From Flavobacteriales bacterium (GTDB lineage: Bacteria > Bacteroidota > Bacteroidia > Palsa-965), in contig JBEIPA010000051.1 of NCBI GenBank assembly GCA_040377305.1, positions 1 through 15,307 of the forward strand: DNA of 15,307 nucleotides. The letters run 5' to 3'. A program made the position numbers and the translations under genes. Under the pieces are notes generated by a model that made no database searches, was not told where the DNA came from, and saw only the letters and a list, made by a program, of their open reading frames with translations. Shown piece by piece: positions 692 to 15,141 of the stretch (the first letter of the stretch is position 1; every line of letters begins with the position of its first letter).

Positions 692-1777
692 CTACGGCTC
701 ATCATAACTCACCACCAACGTTTCCGTGGCAGGATGCGCCTGACAAGTGAGAATGTAACCTTGCGCTACTTCTTCTTCGGTGAGTGCGTAGTTCATCTGC
801 ATCGTCGCACTGCCTTCGAGGACTTTCGCGCGACAAGTACAACACACGGCACCTTTACACGCGAACGGAACATCCATTTTCACTTTGATCGCTGTGTCGA
901 GAATCGTTGCTCCATCAGACGGAATATCGAACTTCTCTTCTGCTCCGTCAAGAATGATCGTCACTTTACTCACGAACTTTCCTGTTGGGGTGACTTGAGA
1001 TTTTTTCTCGGCTGCAGCAACCGCTTCAATCACGGCAGAAAAATATTCGATATGTGTACGATCTCCAGGTGCTTTCAGATCAGCGAGAACTTTCTTCACG
1101 TTCTCCATCATTGGCGTTGGACCGCAGATGAAATATTCGTTGTTGTCAGCAAGACCAACATGCTTGTCAAAAATCGCGCGAGCTTTCTCAGGCAATAGCA
1201 TTCCTGTGTACAACGCATCGGTTCCTGCCAGTGGGTTTTCCATCACGTGAATCACCACCAGACGCGACGAATTATTTTTCGCAAGCTCATCAATCTGCTT
1301 TTTGAAAATCGCCGATTGCTCATCGCGGTTTCCGTAAATTAAAGTGATGCGGCTGTTCGGCTCTGTTGCGAGAACGCTTTTCAGAATGGAAAACATCGGA
1401 GTGATTCCGCTTCCACCTGCGAACAACACGTAGTGCTTTTTATTTCCCGCATCGAGCTTCGAATAAAAATTGCCCATCGGTGTCATCACATCAACCGTTT
1501 CGCCAATGTTCAGCTTCTTGTTGATCCACGTCGAACCTTTTCCGTTCGTCACCATTTTCACGGCAACACGGAGTTCTTTATCGGTAACAGGGCTACTGCA
1601 CAATGAATACGAACGACGAATTTCTTCTCCGTCAATATTCATTTTCAAGGTCAGATATTGTCCCTGGATATATTGGTATTCTGACTTCAGCTCTGCCGGA
1701 ACATCGAACACAACCGACACACAATCAGCGGTTTCCTGTGTGATTTCTGCAACCTGAAGTGGGTGAAATTTTGCCAT
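692..1777 (-). CDS. paaE: Phenylacetyl-CoA epoxidase reductase subunit (FAD/NAD(P)H-binding domains + C-terminal 2Fe-2S ferredoxin)
   Basis: N-term FHPLQVAEI..ET; FAD motif RRSYSLCS; NAD motif FAGGSGITP; YFICGP; ferredoxin PFACKGAVCCTCRAK...ILTCQA; adjacent to paaABCD. Confidence 0.95.
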   Translation of the reverse strand: MAKFHPLQVAEITQETADCVSVVFDVPAELKSEYQYIQGQYLTLKMNIDGEEIRRSYSLCSSPVTDKELRVAVKMVTNGKGSTWINKKLNIGETVDVMTPMGNFYSKLDAGNKKHYVLFAGGSGITPMFSILKSVLATEPNSRITLIYGNRDEQSAIFKKQIDELAKNNSSRLVVIHVMENPLAGTDALYTGMLLPEKARAIFDKHVGLADNNEYFICGPTPMMENVKKVLADLKAPGDRTHIEYFSAVIEAVAAAEKKSQVTPTGKFVSKVTIILDGAEEKFDIPSDGATILDTAIKVKMDVPFACKGAVCCTCRAKVLEGSATMQMNYALTEEEVAQGYILTCQAHPATETLVVSYDEP

Positions 1778-1832: not shown

Positions 1833-1917
1833 AACGCTGCAAGGGTTTAACCCTTGAAGGGTGTCACCACAAAAATCAACGCCGCAAGGGTTTAACCCTT
1901 GAAGGGTGTCGCCACAA
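1833..1917. repeat. Two tandem 40-bp direct repeats (period 45), each with a 17-bp palindrome CAAGGGTT-T-AACCCTTG
   Basis: AACGCTGCAAGGGTTTAACCCTTGAAGGGTGTCACCACAA (1833..1872) vs AACGCCGCAAGGGTTTAACCCTTGAAGGGTGTCGCCACAA (1878..1917), 38/40 identical. Confidence 0.9.
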
Positions 1918-1929
1918 TGCCGAGTTCCC

Positions 1930-1941
1930 TGACAATTGTCA
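1930..1941. promoter_or_regulatory. Perfect 12-bp palindrome TGACAATTGTCA (TGA-N6-TCA, CRP/FNR-family-like operator)
   Basis: Perfect dyad ending 24 nt upstream of the paaA -7 box. Confidence 0.5.
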
Positions 1942-1965
1942 TTCTTAAACCCCGCATCAAATCGT

Positions 1966-1973
1966 TATATTTG
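1966..1973 (+). promoter_or_regulatory. Bacteroidota sigma70 -7 box for paaABCD (TATATTTG)
   Basis: Exact TAnnTTTG match 27 nt upstream of the ATG at 2001. Confidence 0.7.
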
Positions 1974-2000
1974 TTCATTCTAAAAGATTTCAGCCAAAAC

Positions 2001-2948
2001 ATGGAAAATTCGGTTCAATTCGAGGAAAATTTCAACGCAAAACTCGATAAAGGAGACTTTATTGAGCCCAAAGACTGGATGCCGGAGAAGTATCGCAAGA
2101 CACTCATCCGCCAGATTTCACAGCACGCGCATTCCGAAGTTATCGGTCAGCAACCCGAAGGAAACTGGATTACACGCGCCCCAAGTCTTCGCCGTAAAGC
2201 GGTGTTGCTCGCAAAAGTTCAGGATGAAGCCGGACACGGACTTTACCTCTACTCTGCTTGCGAAACAATGGGAATCAGTCGCGATGAACTTATCAATCAG
2301 CTTCACACAGGCAAAGCAAAATATTCCAGCATCTTTAACTACCCAACATTAACGTGGGCAGATATGGGTGCAATCGGCTGGCTCGTTGACGGAGCTGCAA
2401 TTGTAAACCAGGTGATGTTGCAACGTACTTCGTATGGTCCGTATTCACGTGCAATGGTTCGCATCTGTAAAGAAGAAAGTTTTCACCAGCGTCAAGGCTA
2501 TGAAATTATGGCTGTGCTTGCTGCTGGAACTGCCGAGCAGAAAAAAATGGCGCAGGAGTCACTCAACCGTTGGTGGTGGCCCTCGATCATGATGTTTGGT
2601 CCGCCCGATTCGGTTTCAAAAAATTCTGCTGATTCAATCCGCTGGAAAATCAAACGTGAAACGAACGACGAGTTACGTCAGAAATTTATTGATCGCACCG
2701 TTGCACAAGCTGAATTGATCGGACTTGTTCTTCCCGACAAAGATTTGAAATGGAACGAAGCACGTGGTCATTACGACTTCGGAACAATTAACTGGGAAGA
2801 GTTCAATACTGTTGTAGCTGGAAACGGTCCGTGCAACAAACAACGTCTTGCTCATCACAAAGCTGCGCACGATAATGGTGCATGGGTGCGTGAAGCGGCG
2901 GCAGCACACGCGAAGAAAAAAGCACAGAAAGCAACGATGGTTGCATAG
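2001..2948 (+). CDS. paaA: 1,2-phenylacetyl-CoA epoxidase catalytic (di-iron) subunit A
   Basis: [37 protein letters not shown], di-iron motifs QDEAGH and KEESFH. Start moved from the TTG at 1899 (inside the repeat, upstream of the promoter) to ATG 2001, preceded by an A-rich AAAAC. Confidence 0.97.
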
Positions 2949-3026
2949 TCAGACCTCGGTACGCCTGAAATCACGACTCAAGAATATCGTCGTTGCTACT
3001 CGGCCTGACAATACAACCATGAACGA

Positions 3027-3058
3027 AAATCATAAATATTAAATCGCAAATTATAAAT
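3027..3058 (+). repeat. Heptamer tandem array AAATnnn x4.5 ending in the paaB start codon
   Basis: AAATCAT AAATATT AAATCGC AAATTAT AAAT(G). Confidence 0.55.
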
Positions 3059-3347
3059 GAGTTCCGATTCACAATTCCCTCTTTGGGAAGTTTTCATTCA
3101 GGCAAAGTCAGGCACACCGCATAAACATGCAGGAAGTGTTCACGCAGTCGATAAAGAAATGGCCTTGCAGAATGCACGCGATATTTACACGCGCCGTAGC
3201 GAAGGCACAAACATTTGGGTTGTTCCTGCAGCAAATATCGTTGCATCAAGCCCGGAAGATCTCGGTCCTTTCTTCGAGCCGTCGAACGATAAGCCGTATC
3301 GTCACCCGACTTTTTACGAATTGCCGGAAGGCGTAAAATTCATGTAA
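3057..3347 (+). CDS. paaB: 1,2-phenylacetyl-CoA epoxidase subunit B
   Basis: PLWEVFI, HKHAGSVHA.D.EMALQNARDIYTRRSEG.NIWVV, DKPYRHPTFY. Confidence 0.97.
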   Translation: MSSDSQFPLWEVFIQAKSGTPHKHAGSVHAVDKEMALQNARDIYTRRSEGTNIWVVPAANIVASSPEDLGPFFEPSNDKPYRHPTFYELPEGVKFM

Positions 3348-3350
3348 GCG

Positions 3351-4109
3351 ATGAGCAACAATTCTGCTTTACTGGATTTTGTAATTCGTCTCGGCGATAA
3401 CAATCTTATTCTCGGTCACCGATTGAGTGAGTGGTGTTCACATGGCCCTTTTCTCGAAGAAGATATAGCCACTGCAAACATTGCACTCGATCATGTGGGT
3501 GCTGCACGATTGCTTCTTACATACGCCGGAGAAATTGAAGGTGGAAAGTCAGAAGACGATTACGCCTATCTCCGCGATCACGTTGAATTTAAATGCGCAC
3601 TGCTCGTTCAGCAACCAAATGGTGACTTCGGCGATACACAAGCCCGTCAACTGTACTATTCTTCATTCGCGTACATTCTTTACACAGAATTAAAGAATAG
3701 CAAGAACGAGCAACTGGCTGCGTTTGCCACAAAGGCAATCAAAGAAACTATTTACCACCTGCGTCACTGCAGCGAATGGGTTATTCGTCTCGGCGATGGA
3801 ACGGACGAGAGCAAACAGCGCATGCAGAAAGCATTAGATAATCTGTGGACATACACCGGAGATTTGTTTGCAACCACTGCGGGCGATGCGCAACTCGTGA
3901 AAGACGGAATCATTCCTGATGTTGCATCACTTCAATCAAAGTGGTACGACATGGTGAAAGAAGTTGTAACACGTGCAACACTTACAATGCCGGATGCAAG
4001 TGCATTCATGCAAAGCGGAAGTCGCGAAGGAAAACACACGGAACATTTGAGTTACCTCGTTGGAGAAATGCAATCGGTAACACGGGCGTTCCCTGGGGCG
4101 AAGTGGTAA
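3351..4109 (+). CDS. paaC: 1,2-phenylacetyl-CoA epoxidase structural subunit C
   Basis: RLGDNNLILGHRLSEWCSHGPFLEEDIA, QPNGDF, WVIRLGDGTDES, GKHTEHL, C-terminal PGAKW. Confidence 0.97.
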   Translation: MSNNSALLDFVIRLGDNNLILGHRLSEWCSHGPFLEEDIATANIALDHVGAARLLLTYAGEIEGGKSEDDYAYLRDHVEFKCALLVQQPNGDFGDTQARQLYYSSFAYILYTELKNSKNEQLAAFATKAIKETIYHLRHCSEWVIRLGDGTDESKQRMQKALDNLWTYTGDLFATTAGDAQLVKDGIIPDVASLQSKWYDMVKEVVTRATLTMPDASAFMQSGSREGKHTEHLSYLVGEMQSVTRAFPGAKW

Positions 4110-4248
4110 TATGCTAATGTGTTAATCTGCTAATTTGCTAAAAGCTCTGAGCGACGCAGGATTGAGGCTTTTGTCAACGACCAACAAACGTCTTTCTATT
4201 TTAAATACATTCTTTAGCACATTATCCCATTAGCATATTAGCACATTA
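4107..4248. repeat. Inverted pair of octamer tandem arrays (TAATnTGC x4 / GCAnATTA x4) filling the paaC-paaD gap
   Basis: Left TAATATGC TAATGTGT TAATCTGC TAATTTGC TAAAAG (4107..4144); right CTTTA GCACATTA TCCCATTA GCATATTA GCACATTA (4212..4248). Confidence 0.85.
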
Positions 4249-4250
4249 TC

Positions 4251-4757
4251 ATGGGAGAGATTCATAAGCTACCAACCGTTTCCAATGAGATCCTCGACAT
4301 TCTGAAGAGTGTAAGCGATCCGGAAATTCCTGTGCTGAGCGTAATTGACATGGGCATTGTACGTGATGTGATCGAAGGAAAAGAATCCGTTGAAGTTTAC
4401 ATTACTCCTACGTACAGTGGTTGTCCGGCAATGGATGCGATTTCGAAGGATATTGAACGCGCGTTATCACAGCGAGGTTTTTTACATGTAGTAGTCAAGC
4501 AGGTTCTTTCTCCAGCATGGACAACCGATTGGATTACCGAAGAAGGTAAACGCAAGCTCGAAGAATACGGCATTGCTCCTCCTCAAACTTCTACTGCTGA
4601 GAAAAGTGTTTTGTTTGGCGAACACAAAGCAGTTCGTTGTCCGCGATGCAAATCGGAGAACACAACCATGATTTCCAACTTCGGATCTACGGCGTGCAAA
4701 GCCTTGTGGAAGTGTGAAGATTGTAAGGAGCCGTTTGATTATTTTAAGTGTATCTGA
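4251..4757 (+). CDS. paaD: 1,2-phenylacetyl-CoA epoxidase accessory subunit D (DUF59-like + Zn ribbon)
   Basis: VSDPEIPVLSVIDMGIVR, TPTYSGCPA, LSPAWTTDWI, CPRC..FGSTACKALWKCEDCKEPFDYFKC. Confidence 0.96.
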   Translation: MGEIHKLPTVSNEILDILKSVSDPEIPVLSVIDMGIVRDVIEGKESVEVYITPTYSGCPAMDAISKDIERALSQRGFLHVVVKQVLSPAWTTDWITEEGKRKLEEYGIAPPQTSTAEKSVLFGEHKAVRCPRCKSENTTMISNFGSTACKALWKCEDCKEPFDYFKCI

Positions 4758-4763
4758 TCGAAG

Positions 4764-5216
4764 ATGAAAAGCTTTACCGCTTTCCTAATCTTGATTTTAT
4801 TATCGACAGGATGTGGTGTCACTTCAAGTTTGCTCTGCGTGAGTCAGCAACTTGGCCCTATTTATTTCATCGGTACTGATAAAGCGACACATACCAATGG
4901 ACTATGGTTATTGAAATACGTTTCGCCAAGAGATTCATTTAATAATTATCCCCCTCAAGCAGACTGGGCTTTAATATTTAAGGATATGGAAAGTGTGGGT
5001 TATGATAAAACATCTCTCATCGGTAGAAGGACGGGATACAAAAATCGGTTTGTCATCATAACATCGAATAACACTTCGATTGAGAAATTTAAATTTTATC
5101 GGGACAGCGTGGCTTTTCTAAAAGGCCGAACAGAACTAGGAGTTCCGGAATCAATCAATTTCAGCCCCGTACGTTACGAAGCCTTTGTACCGTGTCTCAG
5201 TGATACAGCTCGTTGA
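4764..5216 (+). CDS. Hypothetical lipoprotein
   Basis: MK + hydrophobic stretch + lipobox-like LSTG|C (Cys17); starts 6 nt after the paaD stop; no recognised domain. Confidence 0.7.
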   Translation: MKSFTAFLILILLSTGCGVTSSLLCVSQQLGPIYFIGTDKATHTNGLWLLKYVSPRDSFNNYPPQADWALIFKDMESVGYDKTSLIGRRTGYKNRFVIITSNNTSIEKFKFYRDSVAFLKGRTELGVPESINFSPVRYEAFVPCLSDTAR

Positions 5217-5314
5217 ATGGTGGGATTAATCTCTGCTCTAAGGAAACCGTGCGTTTTTCCTAATAAACCCATTGTATCACTTGAAGTTTATCCCTCTATC
5301 TTTCATATAATTAA

Positions 5315-5354
5315 CGGAAACCCATCGTGAAACATCGGAAACCCGTCGCGGAAC
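5315..5354 (+). promoter_or_regulatory. 19-bp direct repeat with 21-bp period, candidate activator site
   Basis: CGGAAACCCATCGTGAAAC (5315..5333) and CGGAAACCCGTCGCGGAAC (5336..5354), 16/19 identical, upstream of the -7 box at 5379. Confidence 0.55.
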
Positions 5355-5378
5355 TCTTTTTAGTGTGAAATACCGCTC

Positions 5379-5386
5379 TAAATTTG
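5379..5386 (+). promoter_or_regulatory. Bacteroidota sigma70 -7 box (TAAATTTG)
   Basis: Exact TAnnTTTG 10 nt before the TTG at 5397 (19 nt before the ATG at 5406). Confidence 0.6.
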
Positions 5387-5396
5387 CTTTACAAAC

Positions 5397-5594
5397 TTGA
5401 TTTCTATGATGATTCTTGCGTTTGTTTGCCCTGCGATTTTCGGAATTCCAATGGCCACTGCAATGATGGCAAAAGGTCAAGGCCGCAATCCGGTGCTCTG
5501 GTTTTTCCTTGCGTTCCTGCTTCCTGTTGTGTCGACACTAAGCTTGTTTTTCCTGCCGGAAGTTAAGCCCAAAGCAGAGCTCGCAGCAGAATAA
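5397..5594 (+). CDS. Small two-helix membrane protein (start may be ATG 5406)
   Basis: Two hydrophobic segments around AKGQGRNPVLWFFLAFLLP, resembling the common A..KGR....WF.LG...P small membrane protein pattern; has its own promoter box. Confidence 0.75.
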   Translation: MISMMILAFVCPAIFGIPMATAMMAKGQGRNPVLWFFLAFLLPVVSTLSLFFLPEVKPKAELAAE

Positions 5595-5642
5595 CGCATC
5601 TCAAAAATTGGTACTTTTAGTCTATTCTATTTCCCCGTTAGT

Positions 5643-5676
5643 ATCAACTAATCGGAAATTGGGAATCAACTAATCG
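5643..5676 (+). repeat. Perfect 12-bp direct repeat ATCAACTAATCG, period 22
   Basis: Copies at 5643..5654 and 5665..5676; the second ends 5 nt before the paaG ATG. Confidence 0.75.
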
Positions 5677-5681
5677 ATACC

Positions 5682-6461
5682 ATGTCTACATTCATTCTTT
5701 CCGAACACACAAACGGTGTTGCGATCATCAAACTCAACCGTCCCGATAAATTCAACGCGTTCAATCGCGAGATGTCGCTTCAATTGCACAAAGCACTCGA
5801 TGCTGCAGCTGCCGATGAATCTGTTCGCGCCATTTACCTCACCGGAGAAGGGAAAGGTTTCTGCGCCGGACAAGATCTCAGTGAAGCCATTGATCCGCAA
5901 GGACCGAGTTTGCTGCAGATTGTAACAGAACACTACAATCCAATCATCACACGTTTACGTTCTATTGAAAAACCAATCGTGTGTGCGGTTAATGGAATCG
6001 CGGCAGGTGCTGGTGCGAACATTGCTCTCGCATGTGATATTGTTGTGGCAACAGCTTCTGCGAGTTTCATCCAGGCGTTTTCAAAAATTGCGTTGATCCC
6101 GGATAGCGGCGGAACATTTATACTTCCGCGTCTCGTAGGATTCCAGCGTGCTGCTGCTTTAATGATGACAGGCGACAAAGTAATGGCTGCCGATGCGCAA
6201 CAGATGGGAATGATTTACAAAGTGTACGATGATGCATCATTCGCAGAAGAGTCCATGAAATTTACAATCGGACTTTCCATGATGCCTACAATCGGACTCG
6301 GATTGACGAAGCGCTTGCTCAATGAGGGAACAACGAATTCACTCGAACAACAACTCGAACGTGAAGCGGTGATTCAGGTTGAAGCAGCACAGTCGTACGA
6401 TTTCAAAGAAGGCGTTCAATCGTTTTTAGAGAAGAGGAAACCAGTTTTCAAAGGAAAGTAG
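5682..6461 (+). CDS. paaG: 2-(1,2-epoxy-1,2-dihydrophenyl)acetyl-CoA isomerase (crotonase family)
   Basis: LNRPDKFNAF, GFCAGQDL, HYNPII, AVNGIAAGAGANIALACD, LIPDSGGT (PaaG-type Asp), FLEKRKPVFKG; paa context. Confidence 0.93.
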   Translation: MSTFILSEHTNGVAIIKLNRPDKFNAFNREMSLQLHKALDAAAADESVRAIYLTGEGKGFCAGQDLSEAIDPQGPSLLQIVTEHYNPIITRLRSIEKPIVCAVNGIAAGAGANIALACDIVVATASASFIQAFSKIALIPDSGGTFILPRLVGFQRAAALMMTGDKVMAADAQQMGMIYKVYDDASFAEESMKFTIGLSMMPTIGLGLTKRLLNEGTTNSLEQQLEREAVIQVEAAQSYDFKEGVQSFLEKRKPVFKGK

Positions 6462-6465
6462 TGTC

Positions 6466-6502
6466 GATATGCAAATTTGCAGATGTGCAGATATGCAGAT
6501 GC
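6466..6502 (+). repeat. Octamer tandem array (G/A)ATnTGCA x4.5 after the paaG stop
   Basis: GATATGCA AATTTGCA GATGTGCA GATATGCA GATGC; no inverted partner in the gap. Confidence 0.75.
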
Positions 6503-6523
6503 TAAACTTGTTAAAAAGGATTT

Positions 6524-7699
6524 ATGAGTACACTTAATAATTCAGCTGTGATTGGTGTCATCGGTTCCGGAGCGATGGGCTCAGGGATCGCTCAGGTTGC
6601 AGCAACTGCTGGACACAACGTAATTATTTACGACAACAATTCGGCTCAACTTGAAAAAGCGAAAGCAGGTTTGCAGTCGACGATGAACAAGCTCGTGGAG
6701 AAAGGTAAATTCTCGAGAGAAACTGCTGATCAGATTGTGTCCCGAATTCAGTATGCGGATAAGCTCGACGAATTTTCCTCGTGCAAACTGGTGATTGAAG
6801 CGATCGTTGAGAATATCCAGGTGAAACAGGATATTTTCTCTCAGTTGGAAATGATTGTTAGCGAGAAAGCAGTTCTTGCTTCGAATACATCTTCTCTTTC
6901 GATTACTTCGATTGCATCTGCCTGCAAACATGTGAATCGTGTGATGGGAATTCATTTCTTCAATCCGGCTCCGCTGATGCCGCTGGTTGAAATCATCCCG
7001 GGATTGGCGACCGATGCTGCTTTAGTACCTGAAGTGAAAGCGCTCGTCGACTCGTGGGGAAAATCTACTGTGCTAGCTAAAGACACTCCCGGATTTATTG
7101 TGAACCGTATTGCGCGTTCATACTACGGAGAATCTATCCGCATTTACGAAGAAGGACTTGCTGATTTTGCAACGATCGACTGGGCCATGAAAACATTCGG
7201 TGGATTCAAAATGGGTCCTTTCGAGCTCATGGATTTCATTGGTAATGATGTGAACTACAAAGTGACCGAAACTGTTTGGGAACAGTTCTTTTACGACCCT
7301 CGTTTCAAGCCTTCGTTCACACAAAAGCGTTTGTACGAAGCAAAATTCTTCGGGAGAAAATCCGGTCGCGGCTATTACAACTACGCTGATGGAGTTGTGC
7401 CACCGCAGCCCAAAGAAGACAAAATTTTGGGCAATATTATTTTTGAACGGGTTCTTTCGATGCTCATTAACGAAGCAGTCGATTCTCTTTACCTCGGACT
7501 TGCAACACGCGATGATATAGATACAGCAATGACGAAGGGCGTGAATTATCCAAAAGGTCTGCTGAAATGGTGTGATGACCTCGGCGCCAGCTTTGTTTAT
7601 CATAACATGCACAACCTGTATATTGAGTACGGCGAGGACCGATACCGTCCAAGTGTACTGCTTAAACGCATGGCAAGATCGATTAATAAATTTTATTAA
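6524..7699 (+). CDS. paaH: 3-hydroxyacyl-CoA (3-hydroxyadipyl-CoA) dehydrogenase
   Basis: Rossmann GSGAMGSGIA, VIEAIVE, LASNTSSLSI, GIHFFNPAPLMPLVE, DTPGFIVNR, MGPFELMDFIG, and a second C-terminal 3HCDH domain (MTKGVNYPKG). Confidence 0.92.
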   Translation: MSTLNNSAVIGVIGSGAMGSGIAQVAATAGHNVIIYDNNSAQLEKAKAGLQSTMNKLVEKGKFSRETADQIVSRIQYADKLDEFSSCKLVIEAIVENIQVKQDIFSQLEMIVSEKAVLASNTSSLSITSIASACKHVNRVMGIHFFNPAPLMPLVEIIPGLATDAALVPEVKALVDSWGKSTVLAKDTPGFIVNRIARSYYGESIRIYEEGLADFATIDWAMKTFGGFKMGPFELMDFIGNDVNYKVTETVWEQFFYDPRFKPSFTQKRLYEAKFFGRKSGRGYYNYADGVVPPQPKEDKILGNIIFERVLSMLINEAVDSLYLGLATRDDIDTAMTKGVNYPKGLLKWCDDLGASFVYHNMHNLYIEYGEDRYRPSVLLKRMARSINKFY

Positions 7700-7701
7700 T
7701 C
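7681..7701. repeat. 21-bp AT-rich palindrome over the paaH stop codon
   Basis: GATTAATAAA-T-TTTATTAATC, perfect 10-bp arms. Confidence 0.6.
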
Positions 7702-7719
7702 TGATTCCGGACCCGCTCC

Positions 7720-7746
7720 TGTAACTTTACCAACTTACAGCGTTAT
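7720..7746 (+). promoter_or_regulatory. Candidate ECF-sigma promoter TGTAAC-N15-CGTTAT
   Basis: TGTAAC tttaccaacttacag CGTTAT, 18 nt before ATG 7765; same boxes and spacing as 579..605. Confidence 0.55.
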
Positions 7747-7764
7747 GCATGTAGCCTTGACCTG

Positions 7765-9234
7765 ATGAGAGCATTCCTGATTTCAGTTTTTGTATTGCTC
7801 ACCGCAACCGTGTACGCTCAAAGTAACGGCTACAACCGCGCGTTCTTTCTGCTGAACACCAATCACACCAAACCCGTTCAATATGTTAATGACGCTTCGT
7901 TTCCCGGAAGAACAGTGGTGTACATTTCCTGTCCGTTTGCCTCACCCACTTTTAATAATCCGGAAGCAGCCAAAGGGTTAAAAGGTTACGTGATTGAAAA
8001 AGTTCAGCTCGTTTACACCACATACCGTCAGGATGAATCATTCTCTCAGCAGAAGCTCAATCAGAATCGTTTGCGCAATCTCGAGTTGATTTTACCGGAT
8101 GCCTTCTCCTCTGCTCTCACCGAATGGCAGCTCGTAGGTCAAACCGGAGCAGCTACTCCAGAGGAAGGAAAAAATTATTTCCATGGATTTGTAATCACGT
8201 ATCGCAGTGCGCCTTCTCCGACTTTGATGAAAGAGGAAATTAAAAAACTCGATTCCGCTTTCATGGGCATTATCAAAGTGCGCAAACCGGGTGATACCAG
8301 TTTTGGCGGAGGAGCATTCGTGGAGGGAACACCACCGAAACTTGATCTGCTGCGCATGCCTGACGGAACATCCATCATCCTTCGTCACGACATTCCGGAA
8401 GATAGTCTTCGATTCTACTTACGTCCTTCTACGCCGGGTGCGTCGATTGGAACTGCGAGATACAAAGACACTTCACGCACAACCATTCTTGTTACGGAAT
8501 ATTTCGGTGGACATCGCATAGAACGCGAATGGAAACTGGAAGAACATCGGGAAGATCCAAAGGCGTTTGATTTTCTCGGAAAGAAATACCTCAACAATCC
8601 GGATTCGGTGGTGACGAGTGTTTTCCGACGCAACAACTGGAATAATTTTGTGATGGTGTGTGACGTGACTGGAAGTATGTCGCCATACACGGCACAAATT
8701 TTTGCGGTACTTCCCGCTGTAGTTGAGAATCGTCGTTGCAAAGGATTCATGTTCTTCAATGATGGTGACAAGAAACCTACAGCCGACAAAAAAGATCTCA
8801 AAGCCGGTGGTTTGTATTGGACACGTGCAATGCGTTTCGACAGTGCATATTTCACAGCGCGTAAATGCATGGCGAACGGAGACGGTGGTGATCTCCCGGA
8901 GAACAATGTTGAGGCGTTGATTGTTGCGGAGAAAATTAATCCCGGTGGAGAACTTGTGTTGATTGCCGACAACTGGGCATCGCCCCGCGATCTGAGTGAG
9001 TGTGATAAAATCAACTCACCTGTTCACGTTATTCTCTGCAGCGCAAGAAGCGGAGTGAATCCTGACTATTTGTTCCTCGCTCGTGTTACGAATGGCAGCA
9101 TTCACACGCGGGACCAGGATGTAACGAATCTCGGTTCAATGAAAGAAGGTGAGCAGGTGAAAATAGGAATACAGAATTTCTATCTGCACGATGATCACTT
9201 TATACCGCTGGAGAATTTTTCCCGGGATTTTTAA
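7765..9234 (+). CDS. Secreted protein with C-terminal vWA-like (MIDAS) domain
   Basis: Signal peptide MRAFLISVFVLLTATVYA|Q; beta-strand followed by DVTGSM (DxTxS MIDAS variant), GGDLPENNVEAL, LVLIADN, PVHVIL, FLARVTNG. Confidence 0.75.
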   Translation: MRAFLISVFVLLTATVYAQSNGYNRAFFLLNTNHTKPVQYVNDASFPGRTVVYISCPFASPTFNNPEAAKGLKGYVIEKVQLVYTTYRQDESFSQQKLNQNRLRNLELILPDAFSSALTEWQLVGQTGAATPEEGKNYFHGFVITYRSAPSPTLMKEEIKKLDSAFMGIIKVRKPGDTSFGGGAFVEGTPPKLDLLRMPDGTSIILRHDIPEDSLRFYLRPSTPGASIGTARYKDTSRTTILVTEYFGGHRIEREWKLEEHREDPKAFDFLGKKYLNNPDSVVTSVFRRNNWNNFVMVCDVTGSMSPYTAQIFAVLPAVVENRRCKGFMFFNDGDKKPTADKKDLKAGGLYWTRAMRFDSAYFTARKCMANGDGGDLPENNVEALIVAEKINPGGELVLIADNWASPRDLSECDKINSPVHVILCSARSGVNPDYLFLARVTNGSIHTRDQDVTNLGSMKEGEQVKIGIQNFYLHDDHFIPLENFSRDF

Positions 9235-9381
9235 CCACATAGAATCATAGCCCTTTGTTTTCTTGTTGGGCGAAAGAATTGCATAGTTCACAAGAGAATA
9301 TCGCTGTGCGATATAACTCATGTGCTCTATGATCGCGCAGCGCCTTAGCAAGAAACGCAAGCTATGATCCTATGTGGTTAA
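9231..9381. mobile_element. 151-bp symmetric hairpin element (MITE-like) with 21-bp terminal inverted repeats
   Basis: TTAACCACATAGAATCATAGC (9231..9251) / GCTATGATCCTATGTGGTTAA (9361..9381), 20/21; inner stems TTTCTTG/CAAGAAA, CATAG/CTATG and ATATCGC-tgt-GCGATAT, all centred on ~9306. Mobility is inferred. Confidence 0.65.
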
Positions 9382-9392
9382 TTCAGGGCCTA

Positions 9393-11675
9393 TTAATTCG
9401 CCCAATATTTCAACTGCTGCCTGCCATAAACCGCGTTGTGTTCATCAGCCGTAAGATCATCGTAAATGATATACGTTGTGCTTTTAAACGTATCGTAAGC
9501 CGGTGTGGAAGGATTTCTCTTTCCTGACTCCACTACAATCTTCGAATAGCCCGTTTCACTGGTGATCACCGCCTTCGAACCTGCGCCGGTTATTGATCCT
9601 TCCGGCACGTTATTATCGAGCGAAAGAATATAACCTTGCTTCGCGTCAATTGCACGTGGTGCCAGCATGGTTTCAAGCGAATCAATGATTACCTGTTTGT
9701 TGAGCATCTGTTTGCCGCTGTAGTAAACCAGGAATTCTTTCTCCAATCCAAGAACAGGATTTGCTGAAGGCTCTGTCTTGTCCATCGTCAAACCGTGCCG
9801 ACCAAAAAACGCTTTGATCTTGTTCAGGTTCGCGTCAGTGTACAGGGATTTGCTCAACACAAAGCAAGAATGGTAAATATCAAATCCGTCCTGCTGCTTG
9901 TACGTAGAATTCGCCTCGCACATATCGTATCCCGGCGTAAGCACATTCGTCATGGCTATTACTTTGTAAACGTAATTCTGAACGACAGAATCCGGAATTG
10001 TAACCGATGAATTACTCATCGTTGTATCCAGAAAATAATAGTGTAATGCCGGACCACGCACATTTTTCGCTTGTGTTTCTATACAAGTGGGTGCGTAAAA
10101 AGCCTGCAAATAAGTATCAGAATTCAGCAGCGTTCCGTTTTCAGAATACGCTTTCGGCTTTCCTCCTACTCCATTGCTATACGTATTCTCCCACTTCACA
10201 ATTCCACTCGAATAATACTCAACACAATTTCCGTTGCGTAAACCGTCTTTATAGTAGCACGACTTCTTGATTTTACCATTCGGAAACCATTCTGTCCATG
10301 CACCATCCTGCAAATCGTTTTTAAACGTTGCCTGAAGAATTTGTCCTCCGGTCGAATCGTAGTTCATGAGCAATCCATCCATCTTGCCCGCTTTCAAATG
10401 GACTTCCGATTTAAGCCGACCATTGAGCCAATACTCTTTGTACACCGTAGCCTTCAGATACAAATACTCTTTTGTCTCATTGCCATAATAAGCAACAGGC
10501 ATTTGTTCCCAGTTCATGGGTGTTGTACGATCGCGCAAGTTCAGCGATACCATTTTCCCATTCTGACTTCGGTAGCAAAGTGTGTCCGAAAATTCAACTG
10601 AATAGTTCATGAATTCTGTCACACGACCTTTGTCATCCCAACGCTTGTGAATTCCCAATGGCTTGTTCTGCGGATTGTAAGCCATTACGCTTTGCGGTTT
10701 TCCGTTCTCGTAAAATGCATACGTGAACATATCGCCTTTCGGTGAACGTACTTGTTCTGAGGCAATCGCTCCGTTCGCATACCAACTCGTAGAAGTCACC
10801 GTATACTCTTCGTAGGGCATGATGTTATAACCTTGAGATGGAGGCAATTTAATCTCAGCACCTTTCTTCTTGTAATTCGTTTTCGTTGCCAATGCACCAT
10901 TCGGATGATACGTACTTGACACCGCTGTGTACGCACCATTCACATACTCGTCGGTACGAATCAGAATTCCTTCCTGATTGTAGGTCTTCCAAACACCGCA
11001 ATGCTGATTGTAATAATTGTACACGCCTTTATTCTTCAAGCGATTTTCATACACACAATTGGTTCCTTCAGTCTGTAGCTTTCCGTTGTTATGGAAAGCC
11101 GCAGTATAACCTGTTGCCTCCTTCGTGCTGTGATATCCTGCGCTATCGTAATAAACATCCTGCTTGTAACTGTAATCCGTGAAGTCCCGTGTTTCACTTT
11201 TCGAGAAGAAACGGTAGTTCGTTACACCTGAAACTATAGCCTTCTTCTGGCCTTGCGTATTGTATCGGTAGTGATAGGTGTACACGCGCGCCCACTTGGT
11301 TTTCTTTTTATCGAGCCAGTGATATTCGTAGTACGTTGTATCACCATACGTCGGATCGAATGTAAAATACTCGTAGCAGATCGAATCATTCTTAAACCTT
11401 CCATGGTAATAGTACTGCGCGTAATACATCTTGCCGTTCTGAAAGTTCTTGTTGAACTGCAGCCGTCCGTTCACATAGCCTTGCAGATTCGTAGTATCCT
11501 TTTGATTGTAGTAGTTCAGGGTATAAACCTGCCCGGTATAGGGCTTGCCGGTTGAACGAAGATTGTGGATTTTCTTCTGCGAATCGTACTGAATATCAGC
11601 GATTGGGACGTTATTCTGGGCAGTTAGCGCGACAGAAGTCAGAAGTAGGAGGCCGAGGGCGTAGATGTTTTTCAA
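9393..11675 (-). CDS. Secreted MORN-variant / YwqK-like beta-hairpin repeat protein
   Basis: TTG start, signal peptide ending LTA|Q; many Y/W-x-x-NG-x-L/I repeats (FHNNGKLQTEG, YHPNGAL, WYANGAI, FYENGKP, YWLNGRLKSE, WTEWFPNGKIK, YKDGLRNGNCVEYYSSG). Confidence 0.85.
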   Translation of the reverse strand: MKNIYALGLLLLTSVALTAQNNVPIADIQYDSQKKIHNLRSTGKPYTGQVYTLNYYNQKDTTNLQGYVNGRLQFNKNFQNGKMYYAQYYYHGRFKNDSICYEYFTFDPTYGDTTYYEYHWLDKKKTKWARVYTYHYRYNTQGQKKAIVSGVTNYRFFSKSETRDFTDYSYKQDVYYDSAGYHSTKEATGYTAAFHNNGKLQTEGTNCVYENRLKNKGVYNYYNQHCGVWKTYNQEGILIRTDEYVNGAYTAVSSTYHPNGALATKTNYKKKGAEIKLPPSQGYNIMPYEEYTVTSTSWYANGAIASEQVRSPKGDMFTYAFYENGKPQSVMAYNPQNKPLGIHKRWDDKGRVTEFMNYSVEFSDTLCYRSQNGKMVSLNLRDRTTPMNWEQMPVAYYGNETKEYLYLKATVYKEYWLNGRLKSEVHLKAGKMDGLLMNYDSTGGQILQATFKNDLQDGAWTEWFPNGKIKKSCYYKDGLRNGNCVEYYSSGIVKWENTYSNGVGGKPKAYSENGTLLNSDTYLQAFYAPTCIETQAKNVRGPALHYYFLDTTMSNSSVTIPDSVVQNYVYKVIAMTNVLTPGYDMCEANSTYKQQDGFDIYHSCFVLSKSLYTDANLNKIKAFFGRHGLTMDKTEPSANPVLGLEKEFLVYYSGKQMLNKQVIIDSLETMLAPRAIDAKQGYILSLDNNVPEGSITGAGSKAVITSETGYSKIVVESGKRNPSTPAYDTFKSTTYIIYDDLTADEHNAVYGRQQLKYWAN

Positions 11676-11736
11676 AGCAATGGTATGATGCGCAGTTTAG
11701 AGGAATTCCATACAATTTAATGAAAAAGTTTACGGT

Positions 11737-11886
11737 TCCATGGGCTGAAGCCCGACGGTTATCATTTCGGCCTATTATCGAGAGGATCCAAAAATGATTT
11801 CATCACTTTTGGACGTCAAGTGCGAAGCACTTGCATTCCATCCACCTCGCCGGTTAAATGATAACCGTGCGGCTTCAGCCCACGGA
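11737..11886. mobile_element. REP doublet (REPIN-like): 31-bp inverted repeats with GGGCTGAAGCCC core and 88-bp spacer
   Basis: TCCATGGGCTGAAGCCCGACGGTTATCATTT (11737..11767) vs AAATGATAACCGTGCGGCTTCAGCCCACGGA (11856..11886), 28/31 complementary; each arm is itself palindromic. Confidence 0.75.
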
Positions 11887-11906
11887 TTGTGAAATCAAAG
11901 AACAGC

Positions 11907-11914
11907 TATATTTG
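11907..11914 (+). promoter_or_regulatory. Bacteroidota -7 box (TATATTTG), probable leaderless promoter of paaI
   Basis: TATATTTG-agt-ATG(11918). Confidence 0.65.
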
Positions 11915-11917
11915 AGT

Positions 11918-12343
11918 ATGAGTCCAGATGAACTATCGAAAGCGGTCGTAAACAAAATGATGTCCCAGGACTGGTTCTCCCAGTGGTTAGGAATCGAAGT
12001 GCTCGACATTCGTCCGGGAACGTGTACGCTGCGTTGTGTTGTAAAAAAAGACATGCTCAATGGCTTTGCGATCGCACACGGCGGAATTACCTATTCGCTT
12101 TCTGACAGTGCGCTGGCGTTTGCTTCGAACTCCCACGGAAAAATGGCTGTGAGTGTGGAGACTTCCATTTCTCATCTTGCTGCGGTGAAAGAAAATGATG
12201 TTCTGACTGCGGTTGCCATTGAAAAGAGTTGTTCGAACAAAATTGGCGTGTATGAAGTAGTGGTGACCAATCAATCGAATACCACTGTTGCATTGTTCAA
12301 AGGAACAGTTTACAGAAAATCGCAGGATTGGTTTCCGGTATGA
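11918..12343 (+). CDS. paaI: Phenylacetyl-CoA thioesterase (hotdog fold)
   Basis: DWFSQWLGI, DMLNGFAIAHGGITYSLSDSALAFASNS, YEVVVTNQ...ALFKGTVY. Start moved from 11858 (inside the REP arm) to ATG 11918. Confidence 0.92.
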   Translation: MSPDELSKAVVNKMMSQDWFSQWLGIEVLDIRPGTCTLRCVVKKDMLNGFAIAHGGITYSLSDSALAFASNSHGKMAVSVETSISHLAAVKENDVLTAVAIEKSCSNKIGVYEVVVTNQSNTTVALFKGTVYRKSQDWFPV

Positions 12344-12657
12344 AGCTGAGGTTTAGCCCGAAGTATTTTAAGATCCGAACAGGGGTCATCAGTTTTACGC
12401 TCGGAACAATCGGTCTTTCTGTACTCAGCTATTACATGGTTTGTGCGGCTATTACAGACCAGTCTGCCGACCGAATGGAAATAATGTGGATCACGATTGG
12501 AGTAATCAGCGGTACGTTGCTTTTTGGCTTCCTCGCCTATATCGCGTGGAAGTCATACGATGAAACTTTGCGTGAGAGCGACAAAATAATGTGGGCCGTG
12601 AGTAAGTGGAAAGTGATCAAACGTTGGCTGCTTGATCCATACCATTCGATCTGGTAA
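12340..12657 (+). CDS. Small two-TM membrane protein, translationally coupled to paaI
   Basis: ATG at 12340 overlaps the paaI stop (ATGA); hydrophobic segments VISFTLGTIGLSVLSYYMVCAAI and IMWITIGVISGTLLFGFLAYIAW. Confidence 0.7.
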   Translation: MKLRFSPKYFKIRTGVISFTLGTIGLSVLSYYMVCAAITDQSADRMEIMWITIGVISGTLLFGFLAYIAWKSYDETLRESDKIMWAVSKWKVIKRWLLDPYHSIW

Positions 12658-12730
12658 AACTTTACCCGCGTCAAAGTCCGCGTTAACCGCAAATAGATCA
12701 GCACGAACACTAACCCACATTTCCGGAAGT

Positions 12731-12738
12731 TACATTTG
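12731..12738 (+). promoter_or_regulatory. Bacteroidota -7 box (TACATTTG), probable leaderless promoter of the cyclase gene
   Basis: TACATTTG-tgt-GTG(12742); same geometry as at paaI. Confidence 0.55.
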
Positions 12739-12741
12739 TGT

Positions 12742-14829
12742 GTGCTGAAGTCTCTGCTACATATTTGTACTTGTGCTATCCTTTTTCTGATAGCAATTCC
12801 CGGTTATACTGACGAGCCGGAGAAGGGCAATCCCACAATCGATTCTTTGAAACGCGTTATTGAATTGCATCCTGCCGATTCACTTGGTGCGAAAGCGTAC
12901 ATCGGACTTGCTGGAGAGTTCCTGTTTGAGGATCCACATCAGGCAGAAATATATTGTAACAAGTCGCTGGAAGTTTCACGTCGTGCGAACTGGAAAGAAG
13001 GAATTGGTGAAGCTCTTGGGTGGATTGCCTATTTGCTTGAGCAGCGCGGCAAAGTTGATTCTGCTCTGAGCTATTACCAGGAAGCACTCGTGATTGCGCG
13101 TGACCTCGAGCAATTGAATGCACAAGGCACGATCATCAACAACATTGCTGCGATTTACAAAGACAAAGGTCTGATCGAAAAAGCATTGGAAATGTATGAT
13201 CAAAGCATCACGCTGAAAAAAGAAAGCGGAGATAAACACGGATTGGCATCCACCTACAACAACATCGGTTTGATTTATCAGAATCAGGGACAGATTGACG
13301 AGGCGTTGAGTTACTATAACCAAAGCCTACGAATCGACGATTCCCTTGGTAATATTCAGGGAATAAGTACGTCGTATCTGAATCTTGCTACAGTATATCA
13401 GGATCAAGGTGAATACGAAGTTGCGATGTTGTATGTGGACAGTTCGTTGACCTTAGCCGAGAAAAAACACGATTTATATAGTCAGGGATACGCACACGTT
13501 GTAATGGGCAATCTGTATAAGCTGATGAACAAACGCGATGAGGCGTTGAATCACTATCGCCTCAGTTTTGACCTGCGTGCGGCTATTGATGATCAGCAAG
13601 GAATGGCGTACTCCTTGAAATACATTGGAGAATTGTATGCGGATGAAGACAGTCTGAAGATGGCCTCCTCCTGTTTCGCGCAAAGTCTGAATCTTTTTAC
13701 GGTACTCGAAGATTCATGGGGAATGGCGAAAGTCCAATTCCTACTCGGTCAGATTTATTTACGCAACGAGGAACTCGATTCAGCACGCCTCATGGGTGAG
13801 CTTTCGCTGATGAATGCCCAATTGCTCGGTTATCCCTCAGACATTCGCGATGCGGCAAAACTTCTTGCGGATGTCTATCGCGCGCTCGGTAACTACAAAG
13901 TCGCATTGGAGATGAGCGATTTGTATATGCAGATGCGTGACAGCGTACTCAACGACGAAACGAAGAAGATTGCTCTGCTGAACAAATTCCAAAGTGAGTA
14001 CGACAAAAAAGCCGCGGTGTTGCAAGCGCAGAATGAAGCTTCTGTCAACGAGCAAAAATTGCAGCGGAATATGTTCATCGGCGGGTTCCTGCTGGTGCTT
14101 CTGTTAGCTATTGTTTTGTACAGTCGTTATCGTATCAAAACAGCATCAAACAAGGAACTTAACCAGAAGAATCTCATCATCTCCAACGAGAAGGAGCGAT
14201 CAGATAAATTGTTACTGAATATCCTGCCGCAGTATGTTGCGAATGAGTTGAAAGAAACGGGTTCCGCAAAGGCAATGAGTCACGACAGCGCAACGGTGAT
14301 GTTCACCGACTTTGTTGACTTCACAAAAATAGCAGAGCAGTTGTCGCCGGAAGAACTGGTGCGTGAAATCAATTTCTGTTTCAGTGCATTCGACAAGATT
14401 ATCGAGAAATACCGCATCGAGAAAGTGAAAACCATTGGTGATGCGTACATGTGCGCCGGTGGAATTCCACAAGGATACAACGGACATCCGGGTGAAGTGG
14501 TGAAAGCTGCCATGGAAATCCGCGACTTCATGAATGAATTGGCTGCCGAGCGTGAAGCGAAAGGAGAAAACTGCTTTAAGATCAGAATCGGAATTTCAAC
14601 AGGTCCGCTTGTTGCCGGTGTTGTTGGTTTGAAGAAATTCGCATACGACATCTGGGGCGATACGGTGAATGTAGCCGCGCGAATGGAAACCAATGGCATA
14701 GCGAACAAGATCAATGTTTCAGAATCGACTTACGAGTTGATCAAAGACCAATTTGCGTGCGAGTATCGCGGTGAGATTGAGGCAAAGAATAAAGGGAAGG
14801 TGAAGATGTATTTTGTGGAGAAGGTTTAG
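12742..14829 (+). CDS. Membrane-bound class III adenylate cyclase with extracytoplasmic TPR sensor domain
   Basis: N-terminal hydrophobic signal; TPRs (LASTYNNIGLIYQNQGQIDEALSYYNQSL etc.); TM MFIGGFLLVLLLAIVLY; linker EKERSDKLLLNILP; catalytic VMFTDFVDFT, KVKTIGDAYM, YDIWGDTVNVAARME (Lys/Asp pair indicates ATP specificity). Likely start GTG 12742 rather than TTG 12736. Confidence 0.93.
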   Translation: MLKSLLHICTCAILFLIAIPGYTDEPEKGNPTIDSLKRVIELHPADSLGAKAYIGLAGEFLFEDPHQAEIYCNKSLEVSRRANWKEGIGEALGWIAYLLEQRGKVDSALSYYQEALVIARDLEQLNAQGTIINNIAAIYKDKGLIEKALEMYDQSITLKKESGDKHGLASTYNNIGLIYQNQGQIDEALSYYNQSLRIDDSLGNIQGISTSYLNLATVYQDQGEYEVAMLYVDSSLTLAEKKHDLYSQGYAHVVMGNLYKLMNKRDEALNHYRLSFDLRAAIDDQQGMAYSLKYIGELYADEDSLKMASSCFAQSLNLFTVLEDSWGMAKVQFLLGQIYLRNEELDSARLMGELSLMNAQLLGYPSDIRDAAKLLADVYRALGNYKVALEMSDLYMQMRDSVLNDETKKIALLNKFQSEYDKKAAVLQAQNEASVNEQKLQRNMFIGGFLLVLLLAIVLYSRYRIKTASNKELNQKNLIISNEKERSDKLLLNILPQYVANELKETGSAKAMSHDSATVMFTDFVDFTKIAEQLSPEELVREINFCFSAFDKIIEKYRIEKVKTIGDAYMCAGGIPQGYNGHPGEVVKAAMEIRDFMNELAAEREAKGENCFKIRIGISTGPLVAGVVGLKKFAYDIWGDTVNVAARMETNGIANKINVSESTYELIKDQFACEYRGEIEAKNKGKVKMYFVEKV

Positions 14830-14839
14830 ACCGTCGCTA

Positions 14840-15063
14840 CGTCATCGCGAGGCACGAAGCGATCCCACGTAGCGAAACCAGCATAGAGAATACTCAAGAG
14901 CGTATAACTGCAGCTGTGACGGTCTAACAAGCGTGTGGATGCAAACGTTTTCGTCTACCGCTTGAGATCTTAGTCAAGCAAAAACGGACCAAACCATTCC
15001 TTGAACTAGATTTGTCTAACTGTGTGCTCCCTTCACGGGATCGCTTCGTGCCTCGCGATGACG
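14840..15063. mobile_element. Palindromic element with perfect 27-bp inverted repeats and 170-bp non-coding spacer
   Basis: CGTCATCGCGAGGCACGAAGCGATCCC (14840..14866) and GGGATCGCTTCGTGCCTCGCGATGACG (15037..15063), 27/27; between convergent genes. Mobility is inferred. Confidence 0.75.
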
Positions 15064-15141
15064 GTCGCCGTTTTTGGGTTTTCGCAAGCACGCGATGACG
15101 TTCCGTTTGCTTTCACGAATCTGCAGTGACTTTCGGATCAA

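Follow-up and report, generated by a model that had tools for sequence, protein, structure and literature searches.

What are the short, gene-less palindromic and tandem-repeat elements that occupy the gene junctions of a paa gene region in a Flavobacteriales bacterium (GenBank assembly GCA_040377305.1), and how did they come to sit there? The region lies on the 15,307-nucleotide (nt) stretch JBEIPA010000051.1, here called the window, which is the entire contig C36 of a genome (G000) of 5.18 Mb and 60 contigs, likely that of a Bacteroidota in view of a T9SS sorting domain among its products; its seven elements are numbered E1 to E7 in window order (Table 1). Probably all seven are copies, lacking a gene, from repeat families that are dispersed through the genome, and a cognate protein encoded in a one-gene cassette likely spreads and replaces them at gene junctions by way of single-stranded hairpins. 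The cognates would be an HUH tyrosine transposase for E1 and E6, a GIY-YIG nuclease for E7, a GxxExxY nuclease for E5, and the four-helix-bundle protein IVP for E2, E3, and E4.

Iterated profiles recovered 40 loci of E1 in G000, 5 of E2, 49 of E3, 62 of E4, 37 of E5, 34 of E6, and 14 of E7, and not a single match for any of the seven in the reversed genome that served as a control. The elements listed in a preliminary description of this DNA, made from its letters alone, are therefore real and multicopy (5 to 62 loci each), although the occurrence of all seven families in the window is circular, the families having been defined from it. Two more members of repeat families, at 2946-3015 and 5643-5681, are absent from that description. 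Only three profile loci in all fall within open reading frames (ORFs), one of E1 and none of E6, while doublets number 19 for E6 and 10 for E1. A stop codon is overlapped at 17 of 37 scorable loci of E3 and 13 of 26 of E5. Spacers between the arms have a similar partner in 14/19 cases for E6 and 3/4 for E7, and every one of the 25 E5 spacers has one, indicating that E5 was copied as a whole unit. An IS630-type miniature inverted-repeat transposable element (MITE), with its fixed ends and TA target duplication, was considered for E5 and rejected: the terminal bases vary among the 25 doublets, even though the unit was copied whole.

The forms taken by the elements within the window are diverse. 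E1 is a direct tandem of 40-nt copies (1833-1872 and 1878-1917) that are 95% alike and each self-palindromic, whereas the arms of E3 (31 nt, 4103-4133 and 4214-4244, built of octamers), E5 (21 nt, 9231-9251 and 9361-9381), and E7 (36 nt, 27 of them perfect, 14840-14875 and 15028-15063) are inverted. E2 and E4 are single arms without a partner, and the E2 heptamers, seen by eye, lie below the score of Tandem Repeats Finder. The preliminary description had taken the element types to be unrelated, but the octamer families of E3 and E4 are related to one another. It was right that no transposase or real ORF lies inside any of them, the sole frame being a 55-aa chance frame in E7, and right about their relation to coding ends: E3 lies on the paaC stop (4107) and E5 on the stop of a vWA gene (9232), E4 begins 4 nt and E7 10 nt past a stop, and the ATG of the following gene marks the end of both E2 and E3. 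Its view of them as operon-embedded applies to E2, E3, and E4, the only ones at co-directional gene junctions; E1 and E6 lie between divergent genes, E5 between convergent ones, and E7 past the last gene. Not all of them are the hairpins that it proposed: six elements fold better as RNA than shuffled sequences do (z-scores of -3.9 for E1, -3.8 for E3, -2.8 for E4, -9.4 for E5, -9.7 for E6, and -7.3 for E7), but the paaA-paaB spacer that contains E2 does not (z +0.2), and both E2 and E4 are lone arms. An Rfam search of the elements returned no match at E<=1.

What these arms belong to is indicated by full copies, in which they enclose a small gene. Family searches of G000 gave 9 IVP, 8 GxxExxY, 10 Y1 transposase, 8 GIY-YIG, and 1 DUF559 matches; these, minus two long GIY-YIG proteins and plus one further transposase, make up the 35 cassette-family genes examined. 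At an alignment score of at least 26, inverted flanks were found at 7/9 IVP, 8/8 GxxExxY, 5/11 Y1, and 2/6 GIY-YIG genes, the figure for random ORFs being 7/397. Among the best 30 loci of each search across the genus, one G000 locus included each time, they occur at 23/30 for IVP and 18/30 for GxxExxY, with control values of 0/30 at dprA and 1/29 at radC. Moreover, the arm profiles match the flanks of their own gene family, the exception being a weak, stray E1 match near a non-cassette GIY-YIG gene. For example, E1 arms stand on both sides of an HUH transposase gene (C8:24096-24773), with another transposase of the E1 family on C3; E3 arms flank an IVP gene (C46:102397-102744), E4 arms two others (C38:16204-16581 and C7:50803-51156), and E5 arms a GxxExxY gene (C53:26580-26987). 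E7 arms lie on both sides of a small single-domain GIY-YIG gene on C56, for which a single NCBIfam query gave no family, and a similar arrangement was seen in genome G010 (L302). For the remaining two families, full copies come from G015, the closest relative found (paaA-D 83-92% identical, gene order the same): identical E6 arms enclose an HUH transposase gene (L249) in which the HUH motif is present, and the E2 unit, its right arm short, surrounds an IVP gene that has a tRNA-like gene on either side. The E6 case is the one two-sided hit when E1 and E6 profiles were run against 30 HUH loci, and the C1 transposase, the nearest G000 relative of the E6 master (as the gene-bearing copy is called here), passes the IS200 model. 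The gene kinds that the preliminary description had predicted between the arms (IVP, GxxExxY, GIY-YIG, and RAYT/IS200-like) are thus those that were found.

Arm sequence also follows protein lineage. E5-type arms accompany 5/6 of the closest homologs of the C53 GxxExxY protein (54-67% identity) and 0/22 of the more distant ones, one locus without a match having been dropped, and the E3 and E4 arm units are confined to one IVP clade in a FastTree phylogeny whose supports were not inspected and 40 of whose loci were hand-picked from 150 listed. A search of the PDB with the C46 IVP protein gave one match, the uncharacterised protein 2RLD. As observations apart, E4-type arms flank a RelE-like ORF (family assigned by eye) at C4:82313-82996, and IVP and small GIY-YIG genes adjoin tRNA-like sequences at L354 (G015:C217) and, in G000, at C49:161898-162158 and C21:114-386; the GIY-YIG genes so placed carry partial repeats of the tRNA end.

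By comparison with known systems, the HUH transposases of E1 and E6 (RAYT/IS200 type) and the Ssn-type nuclease of E7 would recognise and cut their hairpins in single-stranded DNA (ssDNA), and the GxxExxY and IVP proteins, by analogy only, would play the same role on their arms. As no catalytic site is known for IVP, its part would be that of a binding adaptor. Gene-less copies would arise from full ones through loss of the middle and then spread in trans, an origin suggested by the right half of E7, which matches the 3′ flank of the C56 GIY-YIG cassette at 71% over 172 nt.

Part of this picture is already in print, contrary to the proposal in the preliminary description that the elements form one poorly described class. 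E1 and E6 fit the REPIN/RAYT and TIRtron/TIRYT type and E7 the CGTC/Ssn type. REPINs are described as non-autonomous and RAYT-linked (PMC3116915), and E1 and E6 resemble the REPIN and TIRtron families, as portrayed in PMC3116915, PMC5581495, and PMC3733652, in being extragenic palindromes that occur as singlets, doublets, or tandem arrays and whose arms flank an HUH tyrosine transposase gene. They differ from the GTAG-tagged REPs of those accounts in that the terminal GTAG is absent from the arm consensus of both, so that the TIRtron type fits instead; they differ from the RAYT systems described there in that the E1 master falls under the NCBIfam RAYT cut-off, the E6 master is of the IS200-like kind, and the spacer of E1 doublets carries a promoter-like motif. 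E7 (14840-14867, consensus) shares with the CGTC-tagged REPs of PMC3733652 its CGTC tag, a stem that starts with AT, a CCCA tail, and inverted doublets, and, with the NTS-SRM repeats of the Ssn nuclease as presented in PMC11893778, a position around a small single-domain GIY-YIG gene. It departs from that system in that the local C56 gene is frameshifted and has an upstream motif in common with comEC and dprA; Bacteroidota are unnamed in the main text of PMC11893778, whose supplements may list Ssn loci of that phylum.

The IVP-linked elements E2 to E4 have two published counterparts. ORF-bearing intervening sequences (IVSs) of 23S rRNA (PMC4990558) are described with the same S23p/four-helix-bundle family (PF05635, TIGR02436) inside inverted arms that form a long stem. 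The masters of E2-E4, however, lie between protein-coding or tRNA genes and not in rRNA, and, compared with the elements as reported there, they have arms that are tandem arrays of 7-9 nt, dozens of gene-less copies, and a repeat unit that varies by protein clade; the IVP-linked arrays are distinct from rRNA intervening sequences. The intergenic heptamer arrays of Xanthomonas and Nostoc (PMC4692102) and of Beggiatoaceae and Bacteroidetes (PMC4679880) are similarly short, lie beside starts and stops, and often form convergent pairs, but the passages on them in those reports tie them to neither a gene nor a mobile element, whereas here each unit has a cognate gene. No paper on IVP or GxxExxY repeat cassettes was found in the literature.

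How such genes may be expressed is suggested by a second shared feature. The leaders of several cassette genes have in common an imperfect dyad of 30 bp, whose core reads CCGTTT(A/T)CAAACGTTT and which occurs at 87 sites in 65 loci of G000 at a score of at least 18 (column-shuffled matrices, 0-6). With a matrix built without cassette sites, the motif lies no more than 250 nt from 15/35 cassette-family genes versus 92/4070 ORFs; by family, it precedes 3/9 IVP, 3/8 GxxExxY, 7/11 Y1, 1/6 GIY-YIG, and 1/1 DUF559 genes. The masters of E1, E6, and E7 carry it, as do 8/10 E1 doublets, whose spacer it fills, and 20/40 E1 loci lie near a copy; it is near none of the E2-E7 loci of G000. Other motif-bearing genes of G000, among 40 of 70 listed ORFs that were scanned, include comEC, two ssb genes, radC, yraN, recJ, and DUF2851, together with three helicases, two integrases, unrelated genes, and 15 without a family; dprA carries it too. 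Representative sites in G000 are C24:70298-70327 and C11:91935-91954, to which loci L071-L150 are added. Among side observations, a perfect copy lies upstream of an XRE-type helix-turn-helix gene (C11:146183-146491), ORF6N genes carry the motif in three genomes, and it stands upstream of two tyrosine integrase genes (C19:55804-56685 and C10:12124-13281).

The motif recurs in relatives. It lies upstream at 14/20 comEC loci of the genus, at 12/19 dprA loci of the genus (G000 included) and 0/11 outside it, and at 5/30 radC loci, with controls of 0/60 and 1/369; genome G012 is included in the genus counts, and without it the comEC and dprA figures become 13/19 and 11/18, no claim depending on G012 alone. 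In six other genomes, with 38/75 ORFs scanned, it precedes comEC, dprA, ssb, yraN, DUF2851, an exonuclease, YhcG, ORF6N, and an integrase, and again transposase-like, GIY-YIG, GxxExxY, and IVP genes. The -7 promoter element of Bacteroidota is given as TAnnTTTG in PMC9723704, and a match to it lies exactly 17 nt after the motif at 12/30 non-E1 sites of G000 and 11/25 sites of relatives, other offsets scoring 2 at most. A strict form of the pattern was found in 15/24 genomes of the genus, once each in 2/16 class-level genomes, and in 0/4 genomes of two sister genera. Among the cassette genes of relatives its distribution is patchy (IVP 1/29 and 10/40; GxxExxY 7/29, one shared with comEC; Y1 8/28), and on the IVP tree it occurs in two clades plus one marginal score. 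In G015 and G007, which have no E1 arm ahead of comEC, the -7 element stands between the motif and the start codon; in G000 (C24:70231-70327) that place is taken by an E1 arm, which may alter comEC expression.

The genes that follow it make the motif a candidate site of a competence regulon in this genus. It resembles the competence regulons under CRP-S/Sxy and ComX in that one motif precedes comEC, dprA, ssb, radC, and yraN; it differs in that its sequence is another one and in that it is restricted to part of one genus among those searched and is shared with selfish cassette genes. An alternative of limited but real standing, one that we regard as possible though rather doubtful, is that it acts as a promoter site for DNA stress in general, or has only been scattered by E1 doublets, and is unrelated to competence. 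Its occurrence before integrases, helicases, recJ, restriction and toxin-antitoxin genes, and several unrelated genes speaks for this alternative, as do the mere 5/30 at radC, its absence at comM, two comEA-like genes, and recA (in G000 alone, over the 300 nt ahead of each ORF, with operon leaders left untraced), and its presence at half of all E1 loci. The motif is, however, conserved before comEC and dprA in relatives, where no E1 arm was found near those sites, more than one genome has it ahead of ssb, yraN, and DUF2851, and it keeps its fixed 17-nt spacing to the -7 element. An SOS box was also considered and rejected: no site precedes recA in G000, and the sequence differs from both Bacteroidetes SOS motifs, GGA-N5-TCC and CTAA-N5-TTAG, which PMC8565304 places before recA and error-prone polymerases.

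If the motif is indeed a competence site, several cassette lineages, including the E1, E6, and E7 masters, would be predicted to be expressed when transforming ssDNA enters the cell, since they carry the motif of comEC and dprA. The operon-embedded lineages likely use read-through transcription, and the motif-bearing ones likely a competence-type promoter. A tie between cassette activity and natural competence is plausible by analogy with SsnA, which is reported to cut hairpin repeats in ssDNA and to act on transforming DNA in Neisseria (PMC11893778). It is tempting, but speculative, to go further and suppose that four or five unrelated families (HUH, Ssn, GxxExxY, IVP, and DUF559) run parallel arm-plus-gene systems in this Bacteroidota genus that have repeatedly been plugged into the competence promoter and fire on transforming ssDNA; gene junctions would then act as slots whose occupants transformation exchanges, and E1 doublets would rewire the regulon by carrying competence promoters to new places. 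We consider this wider scenario possible but rather unlikely as a whole. No report was found in the literature of RAYT or cassette genes under competence control, or of a competence site in Bacteroidota, and the candidate promoter is what is new here, the systems of E1, E6, and E7 being already known in print.

Comparison of orthologous junctions shows turnover of their occupants. G015 keeps one of the seven, E7. At its other junctions, E1 is absent, other REP-type elements stand at the E2 and E3 sites, a 186-aa ORF at the E4 site, a different GxxExxY-type hairpin at the E5 site, and a heptamer doublet at the E6 site; conversely, G015 has E4-type and (by eye) E5-type elements at junctions that are empty of those in G000. 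After paaI, G008 possesses a full IVP cassette that starts on the stop codon, where G019 has a gene-less arm of the same unit. Among 22 genomes of the genus, with classes assigned by eye, the paaC-paaD junction holds a 7-9-mer array of about ten kinds in 13, REPs in 1, and nothing in 8. The 841-nt paaC-paaD gap of G024 was tried as a further cassette and rejected, as it contains an unrelated ORF and no cassette gene. Two side observations concern nearby junctions. A secreted-looking ORF of 182-186 aa lies between paaG and paaH in G015, G002, and G011 (L212, L215, and L218), and the single E4 arm at that place in G000 (6462-6523) may be the mark of a deletion; at L211, a HicAB-like pair (by eye) lies between paaD and the following ORF.

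For E2-E4, another reading is that slippage gave rise to the arrays as simple repeats and that the host has retained them at the ends of genes as RNA elements (RNase III sites, stabilisers, or translation tuners), with IVP genes lying within such arms, as they do in rRNA intervening sequences, but not moving them. We think this improbable, although it has points in its favour: the E3 spacers are unrelated, single arms are many, arrays occur at paaC-paaD in 13/22 genomes, the stems of intervening sequences are described as cut by RNase III in PMC4990558, and heptamers before start codons are interpreted in PMC4679880 as regulatory sites. On the other hand, this one junction carries about ten different units in different relatives, and the type of unit goes with the IVP clade. 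Arrays at paaC-paaD are, moreover, present in 13/15 genomes with at least three IVP genes and 0/7 with two or fewer, an association that is weak because kin are not independent and the tree needs only 2-3 changes. This explanation also leaves out E1, E5, E6, and E7. The last alternative, by which the paa region would simply have ordinary terminators or operators here, each in a single copy, gains some appeal from their adjoining stops and starts and from the strong folding of several, but is refuted by copy number and turnover, all being multicopy and the set not being conserved in G015, and has next to no chance of being correct, a terminator and promoter scan having stayed at chance level (18 terminator-like sites vs 16.4) with none of these the main stem of an element.

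Mobilization of the arms by cassette proteins remains the preferred reading, and the observations that speak against it are of several kinds. No movement was seen, and no clean empty-site allele with exact junctions was recovered, the spacers of G015 being too diverged; the junction alignment suggested in the preliminary description thus yielded relatives that are empty or hold other families, but no exact empty allele. That description had named single-copy elements, never flanking a nuclease, transposase, or IVS ORF and conserved in place, as what would speak against its own proposal, and of these traits conservation in place was observed for E7, which is kept in G015. Likewise, E3-type arms recur at paaC-paaD in G007, G008, and G023, and it follows from the two cases that not every copy is recent. 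Spacers are unrelated in E3 (0/13 share) and E4 (0/3), so either E2-E4 are old or their copying did not take in the whole unit. As for the masters, no full copy of E2 or E6 exists among the 35 cassette-family genes of G000, the C56 gene, the E7 master of that genome, is frameshifted near its 5′ end, and the C8 and C3 transposases score 61.9 and 66.7 bits against the NCBIfam RAYT model NF047646, under its cut-off of 80. Finally, the motif is missing from the masters of E3, E4, and E5 and from the window.

These arms provide candidate substrates, with a clade-specific sequence each, for GxxExxY and the four-helix-bundle IVP, two large protein families of unknown function, and they may show where the 7-8-mer arrays of bacteria, so far unexplained, come from. 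The motif, in turn, is a candidate for a competence site, none of which the literature search found described in this phylum, and it offers a testable answer to two questions: at what moment RAYT- and Ssn-type enzymes would meet their substrate in single-stranded form, and what lets genes of this non-duplicating kind persist.

Table 1. Repeat elements and gene context of the window.
Feature	Position	Strand	Description
E1	1833..1917	.	tandem doublet of 30-nt REP-like palindrome; arm family of RAYT-like HUH transposase
E2	3027..3058	+	single arm of four heptamers, ending at paaB ATG
E3	4103..4248	.	inverted octamer arrays, paaC stop to paaD start; arm family of an IVP gene
E4	6466..6502	+	single octamer arm after paaG stop (array 6466-6500); arm family of IVP genes
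E5	9231..9381	.	nested 151-nt hairpin from vWA-gene stop; arm family of GxxExxY gene
E6	11737..11886	.	REP doublet, REPIN-like; 31-nt arms 11737-11767 and 11856-11886
E7	14840..15103	.	CGTC-tagged REP doublet plus third arm
Further element	2946..3015	.	degenerate hairpin doublet from paaA stop; 5 other copies
Further element	5643..5681	+	single repeat arm ending at paaG ATG; 9 other copies
paaE-like reductase	692..1777	-	gene context
paaA, B, C, D, two small ORFs, paaG-like hydratase, paaH-like dehydrogenase	2001..7699	+	
vWA protein (+), MORN protein (-), PaaI-like thioesterase (+), 109-aa ORF (+), TPR-cyclase (+)	7765..14829		

Minor features of the window complete the account. The paaG gene has an in-frame 24-nt tandem duplication at 6252-6298. 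In G000, a 109-aa ORF and the TPR-cyclase gene (12328-14829) lie between paaI and E7, whereas in G015 E7 follows directly after paaI, and of the thioesterase-like gene that comes next in G015 the right end of the window retains no more than the final codons. When contigs of four runs were compared, X1 proved identical to the window and may be where it comes from, while one low-depth contig of run X3 skipped 45 nt at E1, leaving one unit and not two, a single contig and thus a weak sign; the other joints were rejected as cross-matches among repeat copies.

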